Source: a virus (taxonomy: Duplodnaviria; Heunggongvirae; Uroviricota; Caudoviricetes). Taken from it: a DNA stretch of 42,613 bases. Position numbers and translations under genes: made by a program. This document shows, piece by piece, positions 1,194-42,237 of the stretch. The stretch is taken from the IMG/VR virus record IMGVR_UViG_2703718839_000008; one strand, written 5' to 3'. How positions within the stretch are numbered: the stretch's first letter is position 1; every line of letters starts with the position of its first letter. Below the pieces are notes generated by a model, which was given only the letters and a program-made list of their open reading frames with translations, searched no databases and was not told the DNA's origin.

Positions 1194-1318
1194 AAAACAA
1201 GTAGTTATACACTTTGTGGGAGCCTATTGGGAACCCGGTGTTTTCATTTCAAGGTGTAATCCATGCCGGGCATCAGAATGAGATATAATGAGATTTTTAG
1301 TGTTCCGCTTGAGAGTCT

Positions 1319-1855
1319 ATGATGCTTACCCTAGACGAGATAGGTCAATCTGTACGTAACAATATCCAGTTGATTATTGATCATGTCGGCTTACCTCTTG
1401 CTGTTGGTCCGCTCAGTGATGATGATTACAAGATTCTGTGTGGTGGCTATGGTGAGCTTGAATGGGACTATGCGTTAAGCACCTATGGCAACTCCAGAGA
1501 AAAGTATGAGTTCTGCATAAAACTTGTTCAGCAAGGTCGGGTTCAGGGAATACCATCAGGAGCAGCAATTTGTGTTTATGGGGTTGAAGAAAACATCTTT
1601 CGTATCCATATGATCGAAAGGTTTTCTAGAGAAGATGAATCTCACCCATTGAAAGGGCGCATGGTTTTACTCACTCTTATGAGTGCTTTTATATTTTGTA
1701 AAGCTGTTGAATGTAAAGTTGTCCACATTGTAGAGCCAGTACCAGAACTGGTGCAGTATTACGAGTCTTTTGGTTTCCGCATGGAACAGTGCGGTTATGT
1801 GATGTCTGCAGTCATTGATGAGCTGCAGGATATCTTTCTTAAATTTGCTCAGTAG
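1319..1855 (+). CDS. Cargo protein, 178 aa, possible GNAT-like acyltransferase fold
   Basis: ORF just inside attL; C-terminal ...VVHIVEPVPELVQYYESFGF resembles the GNAT C-terminal motif; no confident family match from memory. Confidence 0.4.
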   Translation: MMLTLDEIGQSVRNNIQLIIDHVGLPLAVGPLSDDDYKILCGGYGELEWDYALSTYGNSREKYEFCIKLVQQGRVQGIPSGAAICVYGVEENIFRIHMIERFSREDESHPLKGRMVLLTLMSAFIFCKAVECKVVHIVEPVPELVQYYESFGFRMEQCGYVMSAVIDELQDIFLKFAQ

Positions 1856-2051
1856 GTATAGACGAGAAGGGTCTACAAATTGTAGGATACCCGTCCAGAT
1901 TACCTTAAAGGTACATCTATGGCAGTCGTTTTGTGCTTAAACTACTAAGAAACGATGTCACCAATCGACATGATCGATTGGCATAAGTTAGCGAAACAAG
2001 CTAGCTTTAAAGAGAGGGTTAGAGACGCCTTTACTGTCTCGGGAGTTTTCT

Positions 2052-2225
2052 ATGAAAGATCAAAAAGCAACCAAGCCACAGGTTAAGTTCGACACAATGA
2101 AAGCATTCGCAGGTATGGGTGCTGCTGTTGAAGTTCTGATGAAGGCTGCTCCTAATGCGTTCACTCACGCTACTGTCTCTGGTAAAGAGCAGCAGGGTAA
2201 GCTTCGTCGTCGCAAAGCAGCATGA
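2052..2225 (+). CDS. Small basic protein, 57 aa, hypothetical
   Basis: ATG with GGGAG RBS; MKDQKATKPQVKFDTMKAFAGMGAAVEVLMKAAPNAFTHATVSGKEQQGKLRRRKAA; followed directly by a strong terminator. Below the ORF-track size cutoff. Confidence 0.35.
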   Translation: MKDQKATKPQVKFDTMKAFAGMGAAVEVLMKAAPNAFTHATVSGKEQQGKLRRRKAA

Positions 2226-2244
2226 TCATAGCTGGTGCTTTTTG

Positions 2245-2272
2245 AAAACCCGCCTTTAGGCGGGTTTTTTCT
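2245..2272. terminator. Bidirectional rho-independent terminator
   Basis: aaaacccgcc-ttta-ggcgggtttttt; A-tract and T-tract flank a GC stem; sits between convergent transcription units. Confidence 0.7.
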
Positions 2273-2554
2273 TTAGTGATGTTCTTTGCCCTTCTGTTTG
2301 CTTGTTCTGACCTGTTCCCACTCGATACGCCCTTCTTCCCGTCTTTTGTCAATATATTCCGCAAGATCCTGAATGTTGATGCAGCGTTTTGCTTTTTGTG
2401 ATGTACCGATGCGATATGTAGGTACAGGCAACTTACAAGCGTTTGCTTTTGCTTCTGCTGTGGCTGGACTCATACCAAAGTATTTTTGACTAACTGCTGA
2501 GAGTTCAATGTTAGGGGTATTGAATTCAGCCATCAGTAAAAACAAGGTGTTCAT
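2273..2554 (-). CDS. PrtN/AlpA-like small DNA-binding protein, candidate excisionase or regulator
   Basis: MNTLFLLMAEF...MSPATAEAKANACKLPVPTYRIG...LAEYIDKRR recalls PrtN-family/excisionase-like phage proteins; start chosen at the ATG with a GGAG RBS. Confidence 0.5.
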   Translation of the reverse strand: MNTLFLLMAEFNTPNIELSAVSQKYFGMSPATAEAKANACKLPVPTYRIGTSQKAKRCINIQDLAEYIDKRREEGRIEWEQVRTSKQKGKEHH

Positions 2555-7350: not shown

Positions 7351-8004
7351 TCAAAAATCCATTATTACTTGTTTGACAAGACCAACTATTCTGCAGTTCT
7401 CACCGCATTCAATAGTTTTATAGTTAGGATTTAGTGGGACGAGATACCTGTTCGGCCAGTCCTCAACAAATTTTTTGAGTGTCGCTTCTTGCCCACCATT
7501 GATATGGGCAACAACGATTTTTCCGTTAATACACTCTGTATCAATAATATCTGGCTCTACGATAACGATAGAACCTTCTGGTATCGATGGTGAGCCGAGG
7601 GGATTGGTCATTGAATCACCACGGACCCGTAGTGCAAATGCCATTTCTGATACAAGGGCGGTAGTATAAACCCACTCTTCAGCATCTTCTTTCCTGACAC
7701 CAGGCTCCGTCATTGTCCATGAACCCGCCTGAACCCACGAGATGAGGGGGACTTTTTTAACTGCGAATATTTCAGGTTTTAGATTTATCTTTGGTTCAGG
7801 CGAGCCTTTTCCGCTAACAAGCCACAGAGGATCGCATTTAAGTGCGTTGGCTAGGGCTTGAAGGTTGGCTCCATTTGGTTGGTAGTCGTCCTTTTCCCAT
7901 CCAGTAACCGTGACACGGTTCACACCAGTCAAATCAGCCAGTGCTTGTTGTGTCAGGTTCAGTTCTTTTCGCCTTTGGCGAATACGATCACTCATGTTCA
8001 TCAT
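7351..8004 (-). CDS. CI-type prophage repressor (N-terminal HTH, C-terminal S24 LexA-like autopeptidase)
   Basis: N-terminal ...LNLTQQALADLTGVNRVTVTGWE HTH; C-terminal GDSM Ser and downstream Lys; divergent from the Cro-like gene with operators between. Confidence 0.85.
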   Translation of the reverse strand: MMNMSDRIRQRRKELNLTQQALADLTGVNRVTVTGWEKDDYQPNGANLQALANALKCDPLWLVSGKGSPEPKINLKPEIFAVKKVPLISWVQAGSWTMTEPGVRKEDAEEWVYTTALVSEMAFALRVRGDSMTNPLGSPSIPEGSIVIVEPDIIDTECINGKIVVAHINGGQEATLKKFVEDWPNRYLVPLNPNYKTIECGENCRIVGLVKQVIMDF

Positions 8005-8067
8005 GTAGGCAATCCTACCACATGCCCATGTAGGATTCTTGACATTGGTATGTTGGATATCCTACAT
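8003..8067. promoter_or_regulatory. OR operator cluster (three sites)
   Basis: atgtaggcaatcctacca (8003-8020), atgtaggat half-site (about 8029-8037), atgttggatatcctacat (8050-8067). Confidence 0.6.
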
Positions 8068-8068
8068 T
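8039..8068 (+). promoter_or_regulatory. pR-like early rightward promoter
   Basis: TTGACA (8039-8044), 18-bp spacer, TACATT (8063-8068), overlapping an operator. Confidence 0.55.
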
Positions 8069-10197: not shown

Positions 10198-10686
10198 ATG
10201 AGTCTTTTGAATGAAGTTCAGAAATTCATTGAAGCCCATCCGGGGTGTACTTCCGGAGACATTGCGGATGCTTTTGCAGGTTACTCACGGCAGCGCGTTC
10301 TGCAGTCAGCAAGCAAGTTACGTCAGAGTGGGCGTGTGGCTCACCGTTGTGAAGGAGATACACGCAGACATTTCTCGCGCCTGACTGAGAGAGCGCAGGA
10401 GCCGGAACCACAACCAGTTCGTGAAACCAGACCTGTGCGCAAGTTCTATGTCGGCACTAACGACCCCCGGGTGATTTTGTGCCTGACCCGCCAGGCTGAA
10501 GAACTGGAGTCGAGGGGCTTATACCGTCGTGCTGCAACGGTGTGGATGGCGGCATTCCGTGAAAGCCACTCCCAGCCAGAACGAAACAATTTTCTGGCGC
10601 GTCGTGAACGGTGTTTACGGAAAAGCAGTAAGCGGGCTGCATCAGGTGAAGAGTGGTATCTCTCAGGGAATTACGTGGGGGCTTAA
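10198..10686 (+). CDS. Putative regulator with PerC-like C-terminal motif
   Basis: AEELESRGLYRRAATVWMAAF resembles the PerC/Pch signature; ATG just after O-like stop. Confidence 0.35.
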   Translation: MSLLNEVQKFIEAHPGCTSGDIADAFAGYSRQRVLQSASKLRQSGRVAHRCEGDTRRHFSRLTERAQEPEPQPVRETRPVRKFYVGTNDPRVILCLTRQAEELESRGLYRRAATVWMAAFRESHSQPERNNFLARRERCLRKSSKRAASGEEWYLSGNYVGA

Positions 10687-11339
10687 TGAGTAATAAATAT
10701 TGCCAGGCGCTGGCGGAACTGCGGAACAAACCAGCCCATGAACTGAAGGAAGTGGGCGATCAGTGGCGCACGCCGGACAACATTTTCTGGGGAATTAACA
10801 CCCTGTTTGGCCCGTTTGTTCTGGATCTGTTCACTGACGGTGATAACGCCAAATGTGCTGCGTATTACACGGCGGAAGACAACGCGCTGGCGCATGACTG
10901 GTCAGAACGCCTTGCGGAGCTTAAAGGTGCTGCCTTTGGTAATCCCCCATACAGCCGCGCCAGTCAGCATGAGGGGCAATACATCACCGGCATGCGTTAC
11001 ATCATGAAGCATGCCAGTGCCATGCGTGATAAAGGCGGGCGCTATGTTTTCCTGATCAAAGCTGCCACCAGCGAAGTGTGGTGGCCGGAAGATGCAGATC
11101 ATATTGCTTTTATTCGCGGGCGTATTGGTTTTGAACTGCCTGCCTGGTTTATCCCGAAGGATGAGAAGCAGGTGCCGACAGGCGCTTTCTTCGCTGGTGC
11201 TATTGCTGTTTTCGACAAGACCTGGAAGGGACCGGCAATCAGCTACATCGGGCGCGATGAACTTGAGGCATGTGGTGAGGCCTTTCTGGCGCAGGTTCGC
11301 CAGCAGGCAGAAAAACTGGTCAGGGAGATGGCGGCATGA
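10686..11339 (+). CDS. Phage N6-adenine DNA methyltransferase (Dam-like), orphan
   Basis: GNPPYS catalytic motif; no adjacent endonuclease. Confidence 0.7.
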   Translation: MSNKYCQALAELRNKPAHELKEVGDQWRTPDNIFWGINTLFGPFVLDLFTDGDNAKCAAYYTAEDNALAHDWSERLAELKGAAFGNPPYSRASQHEGQYITGMRYIMKHASAMRDKGGRYVFLIKAATSEVWWPEDADHIAFIRGRIGFELPAWFIPKDEKQVPTGAFFAGAIAVFDKTWKGPAISYIGRDELEACGEAFLAQVRQQAEKLVREMAA

Positions 11340-11662
11340 CGACGTTAACTCAATGCCAGCAGCAGGTGCTGGATATGCTGATTTCTTATCAGAAAGAACG
11401 TGGCTTCCCGCCAACCAATCAGGAGGTGGCAACCATGCTGGGATACCGTTCAGTGAATGCAGCGGTGGAGCATCTTCGCGCACTGGAGAAAAAAGGCGTC
11501 ATCACGATAAAGCGTGGCGTGGCCCGGGGCATCACGCTTCATACCGCGGTGAAGGACGACGACAGCGAGGCGGTCGGGATTATCCGCGCACTGCTTGCCG
11601 GTGAGGCAAACGCCAGGCTGCGTGCAGCCCACTGGTTACATGAGAGGGGCCTGAAAGTATGA
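11336..11662 (+). CDS. LexA N-terminal DNA-binding-domain homolog lacking the S24 cleavage domain, 108 aa
   Basis: Aligns by eye to the LexA N-terminus (LT.RQQEV.D.I.....G.PPT..E.A..LG.RS.NAA.EHL.AL..KGVI.I..G..RGI.L); ends after the DNA-binding domain. Confidence 0.7.
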   Translation: MTTLTQCQQQVLDMLISYQKERGFPPTNQEVATMLGYRSVNAAVEHLRALEKKGVITIKRGVARGITLHTAVKDDDSEAVGIIRALLAGEANARLRAAHWLHERGLKV

Positions 11663-12048
11663 AGCTAATACTGCCTTTTCCGCCCAGCGTGAACACGTAC
11701 TGGCGACACCCCAACAAAGGGGCGCTTGCAGGTAAGAGCCTGATAAGCGCGGCGGGGCGAAAATTCCAGAGCGCAGCGTGTGCAGCCATCATTGAGCAGT
11801 TACGTCGTCTGCCGAAACCAACGTCGGCACCAGCTTCAGTGGAGATCGTGTTGTTTCCTCCGGATAACCGGCTTCGCGATCTGGACAACTATAACAAGGC
11901 GCTGTTTGACGCCCTGACCCACGCGGGTGTGTGGGTGGACGACAGCCAGGTGAAAAGAATGCTGGTGGAGTGGGGGCCGGTTATCCCGGAAGGGAAGGTC
12001 GAAATCACTATCAGTAAGTACGAGAAAACGGCGGGTGCAGCCGCCTGA
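11659..12048 (+). CDS. rusA: RusA-family Holliday junction resolvase
   Basis: MKLILPFPPSVNTYW...RDLDNYNKALFDAL...VWVDDSQV matches the RusA signature. Confidence 0.8.
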   Translation: MKLILPFPPSVNTYWRHPNKGALAGKSLISAAGRKFQSAACAAIIEQLRRLPKPTSAPASVEIVLFPPDNRLRDLDNYNKALFDALTHAGVWVDDSQVKRMLVEWGPVIPEGKVEITISKYEKTAGAAA

Positions 12049-15246: not shown

Positions 15247-16299
15247 ATGAAAAATACTGTAAAAATAAACAGTGTTGATTTAATCAACGCTGATTGCCTG
15301 CATTTTATTCAGTCCTTGCCTGATGATTCCATTGATCTGATTGTTACCGATCCGCCGTACTTCAAAGTGAAGCCCAACGGCTGGGACAATCAGTGGAAAG
15401 GGGACGAAGATTACCTGAAGTGGCTGGACTACTGTCTGGCCCAGTTCTGGCGGGTACTGAAACCAGCCGGAAGCCTTTACCTGTTCTGTGGACATCGCCT
15501 CGCATCTGATATCGAGATCATGATGCGTGAACGTTTCAACGTGCTTAACCATATCATCTGGGCGAAGCCGTCCGGACGATGGAACGGGTGTAATAAAGAA
15601 AGCCTGCGGGCATATTTCCCCGCTACAGAGCGCGTTCTGTTTGCTGAACATTACCAGGGGCCATATCGCGGCAAAAGTGACGGCTATGCGGCAAAAGAAA
15701 GGGAACTCAAACAGCACATAATGGCACCGCTGATATCGTATTTCAGGGATGCTCGTGCCGAACTGGGTATAACGGCAAAACAAATTGCCGAAGCCACAGG
15801 TAAGAAAAATATGGTTTCCCACTGGTTTGGTGCCAGTCAGTGGCAGTTGCCGAATGAGGCTGACTATCGGAAGTTACAGGCACTGTTTTCCCGTATAGCG
15901 GCAGAGAAGTTTCAGGAACAACAACTGGAACAACCACACCACCAGCTGGTGGCATCTTATGATTCACTGAATCGCAAATATTCTGAATTGCTGGATGAGT
16001 TTAAATCTCTCCGGCGCTATTTCTCCGTATCAGTCTCCGTGCCTTATACCGATGTCTGGACGCATAAGCCCGTTCAGTTCTACCCGGGTAAACATCCGTG
16101 CGAGAAACCGGCGGATATGCTCCGGCAAATAATCAATGCCAGTAGTCGACCTGGTGATCTGGTTGCTGATTTCTTTATGGGATCCGGTTCCACAATAAAA
16201 GCAGCAATGGCGCTGGGGCGTCGGGCGTTAGGTGTTGAACTTGAGTCAGAGCGGTTTAATCAGACGGTGAAAGAGGTAAGTGAACTGGTGGGGAAATAA
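15247..16299 (+). CDS. DNA methyltransferase (beta-class N6A/N4C type), orphan, in the late region
   Basis: N-terminal DPPY motif (LIVTDPPYF) and C-terminal FMGSGST AdoMet motif; no adjacent nuclease. Confidence 0.75.
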   Translation: MKNTVKINSVDLINADCLHFIQSLPDDSIDLIVTDPPYFKVKPNGWDNQWKGDEDYLKWLDYCLAQFWRVLKPAGSLYLFCGHRLASDIEIMMRERFNVLNHIIWAKPSGRWNGCNKESLRAYFPATERVLFAEHYQGPYRGKSDGYAAKERELKQHIMAPLISYFRDARAELGITAKQIAEATGKKNMVSHWFGASQWQLPNEADYRKLQALFSRIAAEKFQEQQLEQPHHQLVASYDSLNRKYSELLDEFKSLRRYFSVSVSVPYTDVWTHKPVQFYPGKHPCEKPADMLRQIINASSRPGDLVADFFMGSGSTIKAAMALGRRALGVELESERFNQTVKEVSELVGK

Positions 16300-37468: not shown

Positions 37469-37903
37469 GTGTTTTTTAGTCCATCTTTAAATATTTTTGT
37501 GAATCCTGCGCTTAAGGATGACTACATCAATGAAAATTCATGGCCAGATGATGCTGTTGAAGTTGATGAGCAGGTGTATATTGAGTTTTCCGGATTACCG
37601 CCGAAAGGAAAAATCCGTATCGCTGGGGAAAATGGTTTTCCTGCATGGTCTGAAATTCCACCACCAACGCATGAGGAACAGATTGCCGCAGCCGAATTGA
37701 AAAAACAGCAATTGATTAATCAGTCCAACGAATATATGAATACCAAGCAATGGCCTGGTAAAGCGGCTATTGGTCGTCTGAAAGGTGAGGAACTGGCGCA
37801 ATATAATTTGTGGCTGGATTATCTGGACGCACTGGAACTGGTTGATACCTCCAGTGCTCCAGATATTGAATGGCCTACGCCTCCGGCAGTTCAGGCCAGA
37901 TGA
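37469..37903 (+). CDS. Tail fibre assembly protein
   Basis: GTG start after GGAGGG; C-terminal ...LDYLDALELVDTSSAPDIEWP typical of Tfa chaperones. Confidence 0.7.
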   Translation: MFFSPSLNIFVNPALKDDYINENSWPDDAVEVDEQVYIEFSGLPPKGKIRIAGENGFPAWSEIPPPTHEEQIAAAELKKQQLINQSNEYMNTKQWPGKAAIGRLKGEELAQYNLWLDYLDALELVDTSSAPDIEWPTPPAVQAR

Positions 37904-38468
37904 CATCCGGCGCGGTGCTCGTATCTGTTGCCGTCGCCGCGTCAATGTAATCAAGCACGGCGTTAAGCCGGGTGGTTTCTGCCTGCGTCAGCTTCCGCCC
38001 GGCCTGTAATTTCAGCTGAATCAGACTGATGGAAGCCATTGCAGCATCAATCAGTGACTGGCGCTGTGCTTCTGCCGCTTCTACTGCGGCACCGTGTTGT
38101 GCCTCAGTATCTGTCACCCATTTCTCACCATCCCATTTATCATATGGCGTTAACGGTGAAAGCGTGACATAACCGTTTTTGATGGCACCGATATAATCCA
38201 CTGTAACAGCAGCACCATTTTCGATTGAGTAAACAGTCTCATTGCGATGGTCTTCTTCATGGCTCCATCCCTTACCTGTAAATACTGCCACTCTTCCCGG
38301 AATGTTTTCGCCAGGGTCAATACCAGTGGAACAGGCGGGCATACTTACGCCAGTATTAATATATTCATCAGACCAGCCCGTATACTCAGATGTTTCAGCA
38401 TCATAATAAAAACAACGCATATCGCCCGGCACTGTAGCCAGCCCATTTTCATCAAAAACAGGTTTCAT
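37875..38468 (-). CDS. Alternative tail fibre assembly protein, opposite orientation
   Basis: Convergent with and overlapping the plus-strand Tfa gene; C-terminal ...LDYIDAATATDTSTAPDVIWP motif. Confidence 0.7.
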   Translation of the reverse strand: MKPVFDENGLATVPGDMRCFYYDAETSEYTGWSDEYINTGVSMPACSTGIDPGENIPGRVAVFTGKGWSHEEDHRNETVYSIENGAAVTVDYIGAIKNGYVTLSPLTPYDKWDGEKWVTDTEAQHGAAVEAAEAQRQSLIDAAMASISLIQLKLQAGRKLTQAETTRLNAVLDYIDAATATDTSTAPDVIWPELPEA

Positions 38469-38925
38469 TATTTAGCCCTCACCAGAAAGTTAAATGCAAT
38501 ATTTCGCGGTCTGACAGCAACAAAATTCACACCATCACCCACAGAGTTACTGGTGAAATTAAATCGTGAAAATCCTGGCTGATTTCCGGCGATGCCATCA
38601 TGAAAGTTAATTGCGTGTCCCGCACCTCCGCCTATATTCCCGGCAAACTGAGAAAAGTTTGTAGCTTCCTGCCAGCTTAATAATTCGCGACCACCATCGG
38701 CACCTCGCCCGTCATCCCAGATACGAATGAAATCACCGCGGGCTTCAGGTAATACCAGTGAAGGAAACACTTTCGCCAGCACAGGGTAATCAGAGGCAGA
38801 AAATTTCGCCCCGTTGAACTTCAAAAACACCATACTGGACCAGCTGTCGATTACAGTATTTGGCATTGCAGCGGACGGCCAGAAGAACGGAACGCCAATA
38901 GCTGGAGCACCTTCTCCCAAACCAA
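38468..38925 (-). CDS. Alternative variable tail-fibre C-terminal segment, start-less, expressed only after inversion
   Basis: Reads from the right recombination site as LGLGEGAPAIG..., joining in frame to ...ENLGLGE; no own start codon. Confidence 0.65.
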
Positions 38926-38934: not shown

Positions 38935-38996
38935 TATTTTTCTGAATCAGGTGATATTTCGCCTCTTCTCCTGTTTTTACAACAGGAGAAGCACTC

Positions 38997-39560
38997 ATGA
39001 TTTACGGGTATGTTCGTGTATCAACAAATCATCAGGATACAGAGTTGCAACGTCTTGCACTTGAGTCAGCTGGCTGTGAGCGAATTTATGAAGAATATGC
39101 CAGTGGCAGAACAGCTAATCGCCCTGTGTTAAAGGAATTAATTACGGTGATGAAAAGTGGAGATGAGTTGATTGTCTGGAAGTTAGATCGGATAGGGAGA
39201 AATGTGCTGCATGCGCTATTGATGTTTCAAAATCTGCACGAAAAAGGTGTTAATTTTCGGAGTATTACAGATGGCGTAGACCTGAAAACAGCAAGTGGTC
39301 GCTATAATTTCCGTAATATTCTTTCTGCTGCGCAGTATGAATCTGATTTGAATAGCGAGCGAACTTTAGCTGGTTTGGCTATTGCCAGATCCAAAGGCCG
39401 GATTGGTGGGCGTAGACCGAAGTTTAGCGACGAGCAGTGGCAACAGATGGGAGCGATCATAGCGGCAGGGAAATCACGGCGTTATGTTGCACGTATCTAT
39501 AACGTTGGGCTATCAACCCTATATAAACGATTTCCTGTTACTGGCATTCAAACGAAATAA
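38997..39560 (+). CDS. pin: Serine DNA invertase (Pin/Gin/Hin family)
   Basis: MIYGYVRVSTNHQDTELQ... catalytic Ser, resolvase domain and C-terminal HTH; adjacent to the invertible segment; AGGAGA RBS. Confidence 0.85.
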   Translation: MIYGYVRVSTNHQDTELQRLALESAGCERIYEEYASGRTANRPVLKELITVMKSGDELIVWKLDRIGRNVLHALLMFQNLHEKGVNFRSITDGVDLKTASGRYNFRNILSAAQYESDLNSERTLAGLAIARSKGRIGGRRPKFSDEQWQQMGAIIAAGKSRRYVARIYNVGLSTLYKRFPVTGIQTK

Positions 39561-39703: not shown

Positions 39704-39952
39704 TTAGTGAACAAACCACTCGTCAGCAGATTCCCAGGTATCTTTCAGAGTCTCCTGAACAAAAGTTTTTGCAGAATCCTTATCTGCGGTGCGTGTAACA
39801 GAAAGGCCATCGTTGCTGGTGGCTTTTACGATCACCTCTACATCGTCATAACGTTTACTGATGCGTCGGGTTAATTCTTCCTTTAACGCATCCACAGCAC
39901 CGGTTGGCATTTTAGTCATTTTTTCTTTGGCTATGCAGATTTCAATACGCAT
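39704..39952 (-). CDS. DinI-like protein
   Basis: [11 protein letters not shown]...LKEELTRRI...[16 protein letters not shown] matches the DinI-family pattern; two LexA boxes upstream. Confidence 0.7.
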
Positions 39953-39965
39953 AAAAGTCCCTCTA

Positions 39966-39985
39966 TACTGTGTTTGTATACAGTA
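39966..39985. promoter_or_regulatory. LexA (SOS) box 1
   Basis: TACTGTGTTTGTATACAGTA, a perfect CTGT-N8-ACAG palindrome. Confidence 0.75.
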
Positions 39986-39993
39986 TTATTTTT

Positions 39994-40013
39994 AACTGTA
40001 TAGATAAACAGTG
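39994..40013. promoter_or_regulatory. LexA (SOS) box 2
   Basis: AACTGTATAGATAAACAGTG, CTGT-N8-ACAG. Confidence 0.7.
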
Positions 40014-41111
40014 TCAAGAGGCCTTATTTCTGCTCCTTTGGAGCTCTTCAAAACGATTATGTAAAGATTTCGGATACAGTTCGGTATATACCTGCCATAG
40101 CACGTTTAATGAACGATGCCCTGTAACCTGGGCGACTTCCTCAATACTAAAACCAGCCTCAAATAAGCGACTTGCCCCTTCTCTACGCAAATCATGGTAT
40201 CGCAGATCTTTAATACCTAATTTGCTTCTTACCCTCTGGAATCCCGCAGTAACAGAAGTGCTGTTATATGGAAAAATGAATTCTGATTTTTTGGGTTGTC
40301 GTTGGACGATATCCCAGGCTTCCCCAAGCAAGGCTACTTTCATATGGTTGCCTTCCTTTTTACGTGGATCTTTCCTGTCTCTTACGAGTATGGATTTTTG
40401 TTCCTGATCGAGATCCTCCCATCGTAATCGGCATACTTCACCGATTCGCATACATGACCACACAGAAAATTTGAGGATATCAACGAACGGAATTTTTGAG
40501 CATTTATGTGTAGATCGTTGTTGAAGACCTTCAATGAGCATGTCCAGTTCATCAGATGCCGGTCTACGATTACGACGATTTGATTTACCAATTAAACCAA
40601 GTTTAAGTAGATATGGACGAGCGGCTTTTGCTGGGTTTGATGTGTAATTAATTCCATATACAGGTTTGGCAGCATCCAGAACACTGCCAAGATAACTAAC
40701 ATCGTGGCTAACTGTAGCTGGACCTGCACCAGCGTTGTTTCTTAGCCTGCAATGTTCAATTACGTCATTTTCTGTCAGTTCAGATAGTTTGAGCGCGGAG
40801 ACGTCACTATCCATAAGCAGTTCCAGCACATATCTTTTAGTACGGCCTGCTTTACCTCCGGCATTTGGGTCATTTAAATATTTGTGTAGTAAGTCACGGA
40901 CTGTAAGTCCGTCAACTGCATTTGATGATGGAATGCCATATAGATCTAATTCCATCACTTTCTGTGTGCCCCATGTTTTGGCATGAGCATGTTTAGGGAA
41001 TGTTTTACTTTCCCTGTAAGTGATAACACCTTTTTCTTTGATAATCACATTACAGCGATAGCGTGGTGTGCCATCGGATTTTAGTCGTTTCTCTATGTTA
41101 TAGTATGCCAT
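40014..41111 (-). CDS. int: Tyrosine integrase (dusA-targeting type)
   Basis: 365 aa with C-terminal tyrosine recombinase catalytic region (R..H..R..Y); adjacent to attR within dusA. Confidence 0.85.
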   Translation of the reverse strand: MAYYNIEKRLKSDGTPRYRCNVIIKEKGVITYRESKTFPKHAHAKTWGTQKVMELDLYGIPSSNAVDGLTVRDLLHKYLNDPNAGGKAGRTKRYVLELLMDSDVSALKLSELTENDVIEHCRLRNNAGAGPATVSHDVSYLGSVLDAAKPVYGINYTSNPAKAARPYLLKLGLIGKSNRRNRRPASDELDMLIEGLQQRSTHKCSKIPFVDILKFSVWSCMRIGEVCRLRWEDLDQEQKSILVRDRKDPRKKEGNHMKVALLGEAWDIVQRQPKKSEFIFPYNSTSVTAGFQRVRSKLGIKDLRYHDLRREGASRLFEAGFSIEEVAQVTGHRSLNVLWQVYTELYPKSLHNRFEELQRSRNKAS

Positions 41112-41199: not shown

Positions 41200-42237
41200 A
41201 TGCACGATAATCATGAAACACAAAAAATTAATCAAACCAGCGTGATGCCTGAAAAAACTGGTGTTTACTGGAATTCTCGGTTTAGCATTGCTCCTATGCT
41301 CGACTGGACGGACAGACATTGCCGCTATTTCTTGCGTCTGCTTTCCCGCAATACGTTGCTGTATACCGAAATGGTGACCACAGGGGCGATTATTCACGGT
41401 AAAGGTGATTATCTGGCGTACAGTGAAGAAGAACATCCGGTAGCGTTGCAACTGGGCGGTAGCGATCCGGCGGCGCTGGCGCAGTGTGCAAAGCTGGCAG
41501 AAGCGCGCGGATATGATGAGATCAACCTGAATGTCGGCTGCCCGTCTGACCGGGTGCAGAACGGCATGTTTGGTGCGTGTCTGATGGGTAATGCGCAGCT
41601 GGTTGCCGACTGCGTGAAAGCGATGCGCGATGTGGTGTCGATTCCGGTGACGGTGAAAACGCGTATTGGCATCGACGACCAGGACAGCTATGAATTTCTC
41701 TGCGATTTCATCAATACCGTTTCCGGCAAAGGCGAGTGTGAGATGTTCATCATCCACGCACGTAAAGCCTGGCTTTCGGGGTTAAGCCCGAAAGAAAACC
41801 GTGAAATCCCGCCGCTCGATTATCCGCGTGTGTATCAACTGAAGCGTGACTTTCCGCATCTGACAATGTCGATTAACGGTGGTATCAAGTCGCTGGAAGA
41901 GGCCAAAGCACACCTGCAACATATGGATGGCGTGATGGTCGGGCGCGAGGCGTATCAGAATCCGGGTATTCTGGCGGCGGTAGACCGGGAGATCTTTGGT
42001 TCCTCGGATACCGATGCCGATCCGGTGGCGGTAGTGCGCGCCATGTATCCGTACATTGAGCGTGAACTCAGCCAGGGGACGTATCTCGGCCATATTACCC
42101 GGCATATGTTGGGCTTGTTCCAGGGTATTCCTGGCGCGCGGCAGTGGCGGCGTTATTTAAGTGAAAATGCCCATAAAGCGGGTGCAGACATTAATGTGCT
42201 GGAACACGCGCTCAAACTGGTGGCGGATAAGCGTTAA
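41200..42237 (+). CDS. dusA: tRNA-dihydrouridine synthase A, intact, with phage-supplied 5' end
   Basis: 345 aa; [63 protein letters not shown]... Dus-family TIM barrel. Confidence 0.9.
41296..41304. other. attR core within the reconstituted dusA 5' end
   Basis: atgctcgac shared with the left junction; upstream differs at several codons from the displaced host 5' end. Confidence 0.55.

Follow-up and report, generated by a model that had tools for sequence, protein, structure and literature searches.

The 42,613-nucleotide stretch of DNA analysed here (the window; IMG/VR virus record IMGVR_UViG_2703718839_000008, class Caudoviricetes) is an SfV-like/lambdoid prophage integrated beside dusA. 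Between its genes for a Dam-type DNA methyltransferase and the RusA Holliday-junction resolvase lies a short open reading frame (ORF), whose product of 108 amino acids (aa) is named LexD in this work. lexD is 100% identical in Escherichia phage vB_EcoM-720R4 and E. coli strain HH107, and annotation of the surrounding genes was taken from the PGAP record of the latter strain. Both junctions, dam stop/lexD start and lexD stop/rusA start, are ATGA overlaps. The neighbours are those named in a preliminary description of this DNA, which had placed the gene in the early-right operon. The coordinates of the features discussed below are collected in Table 1.

The preliminary description had read LexD as the whole LexA N-terminal winged-helix domain ending before the S24 Ser-Lys dyad. 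The profile and structure comparisons with the LexA DNA-binding domain which it proposed returned clear homology rather than none. The PF01726 profile (LexA_DNA_bind) matches LexD residues 1-65 over all 65 of its positions (E = 2.9e-19, 69 bits with a cutoff of 23.7 bits), and PHROG 362, named "transcriptional repressor", matches LexD 1-108 over positions 1-106 of 106 (E = 4.2e-59). Sequence comparison with PDB gave as best matches 1LEA, the DNA-binding domain of E. coli LexA (E = 6e-16), and full-length LexA, both with E about 1e-15. The LexA equivalog TIGR00498 (NCBIfam) was aligned at positions 1-91 of 203 only, scoring 70.7 bits, under its cutoff of 110.95. Peptidase_S24 (PF00717) is absent from LexD in the Pfam search; the protein ends at residue 108, with the start of rusA at the stop codon. 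Judging from the sequence, LexD is a complete LexA winged-helix DNA-binding domain without the S24 protease domain. As the autocleavage domain is missing, LexD should be unable to cleave itself in the manner of LexA, and the insensitivity to such cleavage claimed earlier follows from this. The LexD segment "LLAGE" (residues 86-90) aligns with "VAAGE" of LexA and was considered as a cleavage-site mimic, either a trans-cleavage substrate or a decoy; the idea was rejected, as the motif is not kept in distant family members and the segment is predicted to be helical.

An AlphaFold2 model of the monomer, built from 38 homologues (predicted local distance difference test score, pLDDT, 84), has three helices (residues 6-22, 28-35 and 40-52) and a two-strand wing (56-58 and 66-68) followed by a helical hairpin; a single-sequence model was uninformative (pLDDT 52). 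The top Foldseek match is LexA in the LexA-DNA structure 3JSO, with a root-mean-square deviation (rmsd) of 1.0 Å over 68 residues and 50% identity. The hairpin (residues 75-103) had no match in Pfam, nor in PDB when a tail-only profile was used. On visual inspection, the tail looks like one HEAT-like repeat, for which no Pfam support was obtained. The model suggests that the hairpin is a family-specific oligomerisation or partner-binding element. It could be imagined that LexD acts mainly through protein-protein contacts of this hairpin, i.e., that the hairpin binds host LexA, RecA or the phage repressor as DinI or gp7 of phage GIL01 do, while the DNA-binding domain merely localises the protein. 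The hairpin is indeed conserved, family-specific and unlike known dimerisation modules, and small phage proteins modulating LexA and RecA are known (PMC6182141, PMC7556043). However, nothing points to a partner, and the simplest view of a hairpin about 30 residues long is that it homodimerises a winged-helix repressor, so we consider such a role very unlikely.

Table 1. Features of lexD and related loci in the window.
Feature	Coordinates	Strand	Basis and remarks
LexD ORF	11336..11662	+	ATG start, 108 aa; PHROG 362 match full-length; pN/pS 0.043
LexA-type winged helix-turn-helix, residues 1-70	11336..11545	+	PF01726, AlphaFold2 model, Foldseek match to 3JSO
Recognition helix SVNAAVEHLRALEK, residues 39-52	11450..11491	+	alignment to LexA, family tabulation
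Predicted helical hairpin, residues 75-103 (helices 75-88 and 93-103)	11558..11644	+	AlphaFold2 model; conserved in all family members
Dam-type N6-adenine DNA methyltransferase	10653..11339	+	PF05869, E = 1e-45; PGAP annotation
RusA Holliday-junction resolvase	11659..12048	+	PF05866
CI-type prophage repressor	7351..8004	-	HTH_3 and Peptidase_S24; PGAP name "LexA family protein"
Candidate early-right promoter pR, TTGACA-18-TACATT	8039..8068	+	consensus match alone
DinI-like gene	39704..39952	-	PF06183, E = 1e-19; candidate SOS-controlled RecA modulator
Two SOS boxes, TACTGTGTTTGTATACAGTA and AACTGTATAGATAAACAGTG	39966..40013		directly 5' of dinI
Third SOS box, TACTGTAAAAATAAACAGTG, near-consensus	15255..15274		5' end of N6_N4 methyltransferase ORF 15247..16299

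DNA contacts of E. coli LexA are made by Ser39, Asn41, Ala42, Glu44 and Glu45 of helix III (PMC3091678); the role of Asn41 is likewise described in PMC5999292. LexD keeps four of the five contacts (Ser39, Asn41, Ala42 and Glu45), with Glu44 replaced by Val, and its helix 3 is identical to that of LexA at 7 of 10 positions (SVNAAVEHLR vs. SPNAAEEHLK). The wing residues Arg64-Gly65-Ile66 are kept as well. The same picture emerges from 19 family representatives sharing less than 75% identity: Ser39, Arg64, Gly65 and Ile66 are present in all of them, Asn41 in 18 and Ala42 in 16, and position 45 is acidic in 13.

lexD is a real gene under strong purifying selection. Among its 83 copies, comprising 48 distinct alleles, nonsynonymous polymorphism (pN) is 0.0047 and synonymous polymorphism (pS) is 0.108, giving a pN/pS ratio of 0.043; residues 21-71 have just one conservative change among the 48 alleles. 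This ratio, together with the conservation of the architecture across genera, rules out a truncated or decayed lexA pseudogene. Shortness of the protein and the lack of a known phenotype might still suggest a non-functional leftover of a captured lexA fragment, but with such selection, an architecture kept at 35-57% identity across many genera and translational coupling this is hardly conceivable, and the selection data effectively refute it.

The gene is very common. Of 5426 complete E. coli genomes, 2233 (about 41%) have it, with up to four copies each, and it also occurs in 50 sequenced phages including SfV (orf42), SfIV, mEp460 and many Stx2c phages. Profile searches have found full-length relatives of 105-135 aa with 35-57% identity, all with the same hairpin, in Citrobacter, Salmonella, Cronobacter, Klebsiella, Raoultella, Atlantibacter and Kosakonia (Enterobacteriaceae); the Klebsiella relatives form clusters of more than 1000 sequences. 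A scan of genome contigs queried with LexD alone returned mostly true lexA genes. lexD is already annotated in thousands of genomes, under the names "LexA family transcriptional regulator", "LexA DNA binding domain protein" or, in PHROG 362, "transcriptional repressor"; we found no functional study of the E. coli/Shigella LexD in the literature. Proteins consisting of just the LexA DNA-binding domain are common across many phage groups, according to BFVD matches and PHROGs, and constitute a recognised, widely annotated class with one characterised member, gp6 of the Bacillus phage GIL01. By sequence, the enterobacterial LexD family is apparently a separate, independent capture of the enterobacterial LexA N-terminal domain, with a C-terminal module of its own. 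Five proteins of about 160 aa in the representative library, outside the window (P0133, P0151, P0156, P0160 and P0164), have two tandem LexA DNA-binding domains and no S24 domain; possibly, these are single-chain pseudo-dimers able to bind palindromic boxes without a dimerisation domain.

The candidate pR adjoins an operator palindrome at 8011 and is separated from dam by a CII-like gene, replication genes and a PerC-like gene. lexD is followed by RusA, a KilA-N protein, DUF968/HNH and a Q-type antiterminator, in this order. A promoter consensus scan found no promoter-like site directly 5' of lexD. Because of this layout and the lack of such a site, we infer that lexD belongs to a CI-controlled early-right transcription unit and is translationally coupled to dam and rusA. 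The CI-type repressor is presumably the RecA-sensitive switch gating this operon.

Two architectures are found around the family. The first (type A) comprises a DNA methyltransferase, lexD and RusA with overlapping stops and starts, and occurs in the window as well as in Cronobacter, Salmonella, Atlantibacter, Kosakonia and Dryocola. The methyltransferase family varies (PF05869, PF02086 or PF00145). We considered LexD as a controller of the 5' methyltransferase resembling the C proteins, as suggested by three unrelated methyltransferase families preceding the gene, and dropped this reading: the methyltransferase is missing in 23 of 80 close loci and in Klebsiella, there is no intergenic operator and the association was taken as positional.

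RusA is a more faithful neighbour. Among 80 IMG/VR loci with near-identical lexD, RusA is located at +323, with start/stop overlap, in every one, and Dam is located 5' in 57. lexD travels in mosaic genomes that differ in immunity, replication and late modules, and RusA alone is constant across these 80 loci. RusA also follows the gene in the other type A genera and in a metagenomic phage described below. To no other gene is the linkage as strong. This could fit an accessory DNA-binding or bending factor acting in recombination or replication with RusA (and DUF968/HNH), for which sequence specificity would be secondary, and LexD can be likened to other small DNA-binding proteins beside resolvases in lambdoid nin regions. 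However, neighbours in such regions often owe their order to history, the Klebsiella form has no RusA, no physical link between LexD and RusA is known and the strict conservation of Ser39, Asn41 and Arg64 favours specific recognition. We therefore regard such a role as quite unlikely.

The window contains three perfect CTGT-N8-ACAG boxes with 0.5 expected, a number reached in none of 100 shuffles; of the CTGT/ACAG half-site spacings, N8 alone is enriched. Two of the cores (39968-39983 and 39996-40011) precede the DinI-like gene, in agreement with the earlier claim of such a gene behind two canonical LexA boxes. These two boxes could be bound by host LexA and possibly by LexD. The third box belongs to an N6_N4 methyltransferase gene located 3' of the Q antiterminator. 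A box is found at the methyltransferase start in 24 of 24 related loci carrying this gene, and in methyltransferase variants of 81-85% identity a spacer base and the encoded residue differ while the box is kept. The box also accompanies the methyltransferase in Salmonella phages L013, L014 and L101, in the last of which it is about 40 bp 5' of the called start. Such conservation suggests either that the methyltransferase is an orphan regulated by LexA or that its start codon was miscalled. This box is a second candidate LexD target in cis.

Boxes were also seen elsewhere in phages carrying lexD. At L006 7103-7122, a perfect SOS box TTACTGTTTTTATATACAGTAT falls within the coding sequence of an alternative repressor gene of the cI type; it recurs in about 20 IMG/VR loci of Shigella/E. 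coli phages, about 577 bp 5' of a ymfL-like gene. Another box, TACTGTATTTATGAACAGTG, is found together with a promoter-like sequence in the RusA/KilA-N intergenic region at L019 ~10650-10680. It is located at +766 from the lexD start in about 17 of the 80 IMG/VR loci, which have a KilA-N variant of 70% identity; the window is without the spacer that carries this box in its relatives. By its position, it would make the KilA-N (antirepressor-like) gene just 3' of the lexD/RusA pair LexA-controlled.

The second architecture (type B) is formed by N-terminally extended members of 118-135 aa. They are organised as a separate unit, in which a terminator is followed by a sigma-70-like promoter, and a perfect SOS box overlaps this promoter. 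The Klebsiella unit has the box TACTGTTTATTTATACAGTA and the order dinI, small orfX, family gene, with no RusA. The metagenomic phage has the box AACTGTATGTTTATACAGTA after a terminator and the order dinI, orfX, family gene, orf67, RusA, DUF968, Q. In the Salmonella prophage, the box TACTGTTTATATATACAGTG heads orfX, the family gene and RusA, with no dinI. orfX, a small ORF of 75-96 aa, is conserved 5' of the N-extended members (L002 5387-6393, L099 2853-3846 and L101 7562-8357); its product has the motif ...GYA.IRC.D...SF.PL..DEI.GT..., is not matched by any Pfam profile and has no homologue in the window.

As read from these promoter regions, host LexA controls the expression of a family member in at least three lineages, and in two of these dinI shares the operon. 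With these operons behind a perfect SOS box, the LexD family is wired into the SOS circuit. The preliminary description had suspected a link between lexD and the DinI/SOS-box module, the two possibly tuning induction or host SOS genes. SOS boxes and LexA-controlled dinI are common in temperate enterobacterial phages whether or not they carry lexD, so the presence of both in one prophage, from which that link was drawn, is weak evidence by itself (PMC7556043); the link gains comparative support from the Klebsiella, metagenomic phage and Salmonella operons, as all three are headed by a perfect SOS box. Across 10 diverse loci, ACTGT-N8-ACAGT, present in six, is the only recurrent palindrome besides terminators and immunity operators. 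An altered half-site spacing or another phage operator was considered and rejected, as N8 alone is enriched and the other palindromes are terminators or immunity operators.

gp6 of GIL01 is the closest precedent: like LexD, it is a LexA DNA-binding domain of a temperate phage, has no cleavage domain and is expressed early in the lytic cycle (PMC6182141). In contrast to LexD, it has just 66 aa and no C-terminal hairpin, its helix 3 is diverged (SHKTAHRYLMQ) and its best PHROG is 3502 rather than 362, which it matches weakly (2.8e-05); the two proteins give no pairwise BLASTP alignment. With 44% identity of gp6 to B. thuringiensis LexA and 50% identity of LexD to E. coli LexA, they look like independent captures from the LexA of their respective hosts. 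In GIL01, gp6 activates the late promoter by binding there to the non-SOS palindrome GaCACAnnTGTGaC, which overlaps the -35 element (PMC6182141). LexD may likewise have drifted to a phage-specific non-SOS operator to activate or repress a phage promoter involved in nin-region or late timing, with no direct effect on host SOS genes. Variation of helix positions 44 and 45 between subfamilies, with position 44 never as in LexA, would fit such a drift, as would the many phage groups carrying proteins of this kind. Nevertheless, neither the window nor the 10 diverse loci yielded a recurrent non-SOS palindrome, helix 3 of LexD is far nearer to LexA than that of gp6, and late genes are already served here by the Q antiterminator. 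Moreover, a linked cis target is not evident for a gene that moves among mosaic genomes with RusA alone constant. A gp6-like function is the main alternative, albeit an unlikely one.

We tentatively favour, without considering it probable, a model in which LexD represses LexA-type sites, is insensitive to RecA and is produced from the early-right operon once the prophage has been induced. The fold, the recognition residues, the missing S24 domain, selection, operon position, SOS wiring of the family and the boxes all speak for it. LexD would have arisen by capture of the enterobacterial LexA N-terminal domain as a small sequence-specific DNA-binding regulator. Upon CI inactivation or infection, it would be made from pR, dimerise through its hairpin and occupy LexA-type (CTGT-containing) operators. 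Having no S24 domain, it could not be removed by activated RecA, and SOS-box promoters would be re-repressed while host LexA is being destroyed. Among the promoters concerned would be those of host SOS genes, those with the dinI and methyltransferase boxes of the phage itself, and those that LexA controls in other mobile elements. In the type B lineages, the LexD relative could provide a damage-induced, damage-insensitive negative feedback alongside DinI.

Several points weigh against this model. Compared with the dimer, the N-terminal domain of LexA on its own has a much lower affinity for operators, and for this reason the function of LexD would depend on dimerisation through the putative hairpin. 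Glu at position 44, the majority residue among the 23 full-length LexA-like proteins of the same data, is found in none of the 126 family members, which have Ala, Val, Phe, Leu, Thr, Asn or Tyr instead; Glu45 is replaced by Leu in the Klebsiella subfamily and by Ile in one Salmonella subfamily. Specificity may therefore be altered or relaxed. By its residues, the DNA-binding domain is close to LexA with one systematic change at position 44, which could relax or alter the recognition of one base or raise affinity. The subfamilies without Glu45 still stand behind canonical SOS boxes, which shows LexA control of their expression and not binding by the family member. No SOS box adjoins lexD in the window. 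The box enrichment was counted in lexD carriers only and cannot be attributed to lexD, and binding of LexD to CTGT-N8-ACAG boxes would have to be deduced from residue conservation and the presence of boxes. Finally, gp6, the sole analogue studied, is an activator at a non-SOS site (PMC6182141).

Compared with E. coli LexA, whose winged-helix fold, DNA contacts and wing it shares, LexD has no S24 protease/dimerisation domain with the Ser119/Lys156 dyad and no Glu44, has an extra conserved hairpin and is phage-encoded in an early-right operon. Under the favoured model, LexD would resemble non-cleavable LexA (Ind-) mutants and the LexA 1-84 fragment in having LexA-type recognition that activated RecA cannot switch off. 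The mutants, however, retain the C-terminal dimerisation domain. The natural LexA 1-84 cleavage fragment is a weak, short-lived binder, while LexD has its own C-terminal module and is evolutionarily maintained. DinI-like proteins and GIL01 gp7 are also encoded by temperate phages, often under SOS boxes, and modulate the LexA/RecA circuit, as is proposed for LexD; DinI is even co-operonic with family members in two lineages. Unlike LexD, DinI and gp7 have unrelated folds and act on the RecA or LexA proteins, not on DNA.

Some other features of the prophage were noted. The integrase gene (40014..41111, minus strand) adjoins an intact ORF of dusA, coding for tRNA-dihydrouridine synthase A (41200..42237, plus strand), and in strain HH107 the annotation has a fragment of dusA at the opposite end of the prophage; according to this arrangement, the prophage targets dusA and restores its 5' end. 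The ORF 38997..39560 (plus strand; MIYGYVRVSTNHQD...) looks by eye like a Hin/Gin/Pin-type serine invertase. It is flanked by tail-fibre-like ORFs (37875..38920, minus strand) with oppositely oriented fragments and by an inverted repeat at 38965-38991, which probably makes this region an invertible segment for host range like those of Mu, P1 or e14. At the far prophage end (~1270-2320, plus strand; L001 1934-2982), a Panacea-domain protein is followed by a hypothetical protein in the HH107 annotation; they may constitute a PanA-type toxin-antitoxin or defence pair.

With some other target site, LexD would be just an ordinary small phage regulator. With the SOS box as its target, E. coli, Shigella and their relatives would owe to a very common prophage gene a second LexA-like repressor, one that is unresponsive to RecA. 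LexD would then be, beside gp6, a second independent borrowing of a host LexA DNA-binding domain by a phage, maybe with the opposite outcome, i.e., LexA mimicry instead of a new specificity. The length and strength of the SOS response after prophage induction could change, as could the choice of co-resident prophages and colicins that fire and the responses of Stx2c and serotype-converting phages to DNA-damaging antibiotics. At its boldest, and this we find doubtful, LexD would turn off the whole LexA regulon in a RecA-proof manner, and prophages, those of Stx2c phages included, would carry this switch in about 40% of E. coli strains. Host SOS genes, LexA-controlled antirepressors of co-resident prophages and colicins or SOS toxins would then be silenced again after the prophage's own induction, and one prophage could monopolise the cell and reshape its antibiotic and toxin-phage induction responses. 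In the lineages with an SOS box and dinI, this would form a negative-feedback loop setting the induction threshold.

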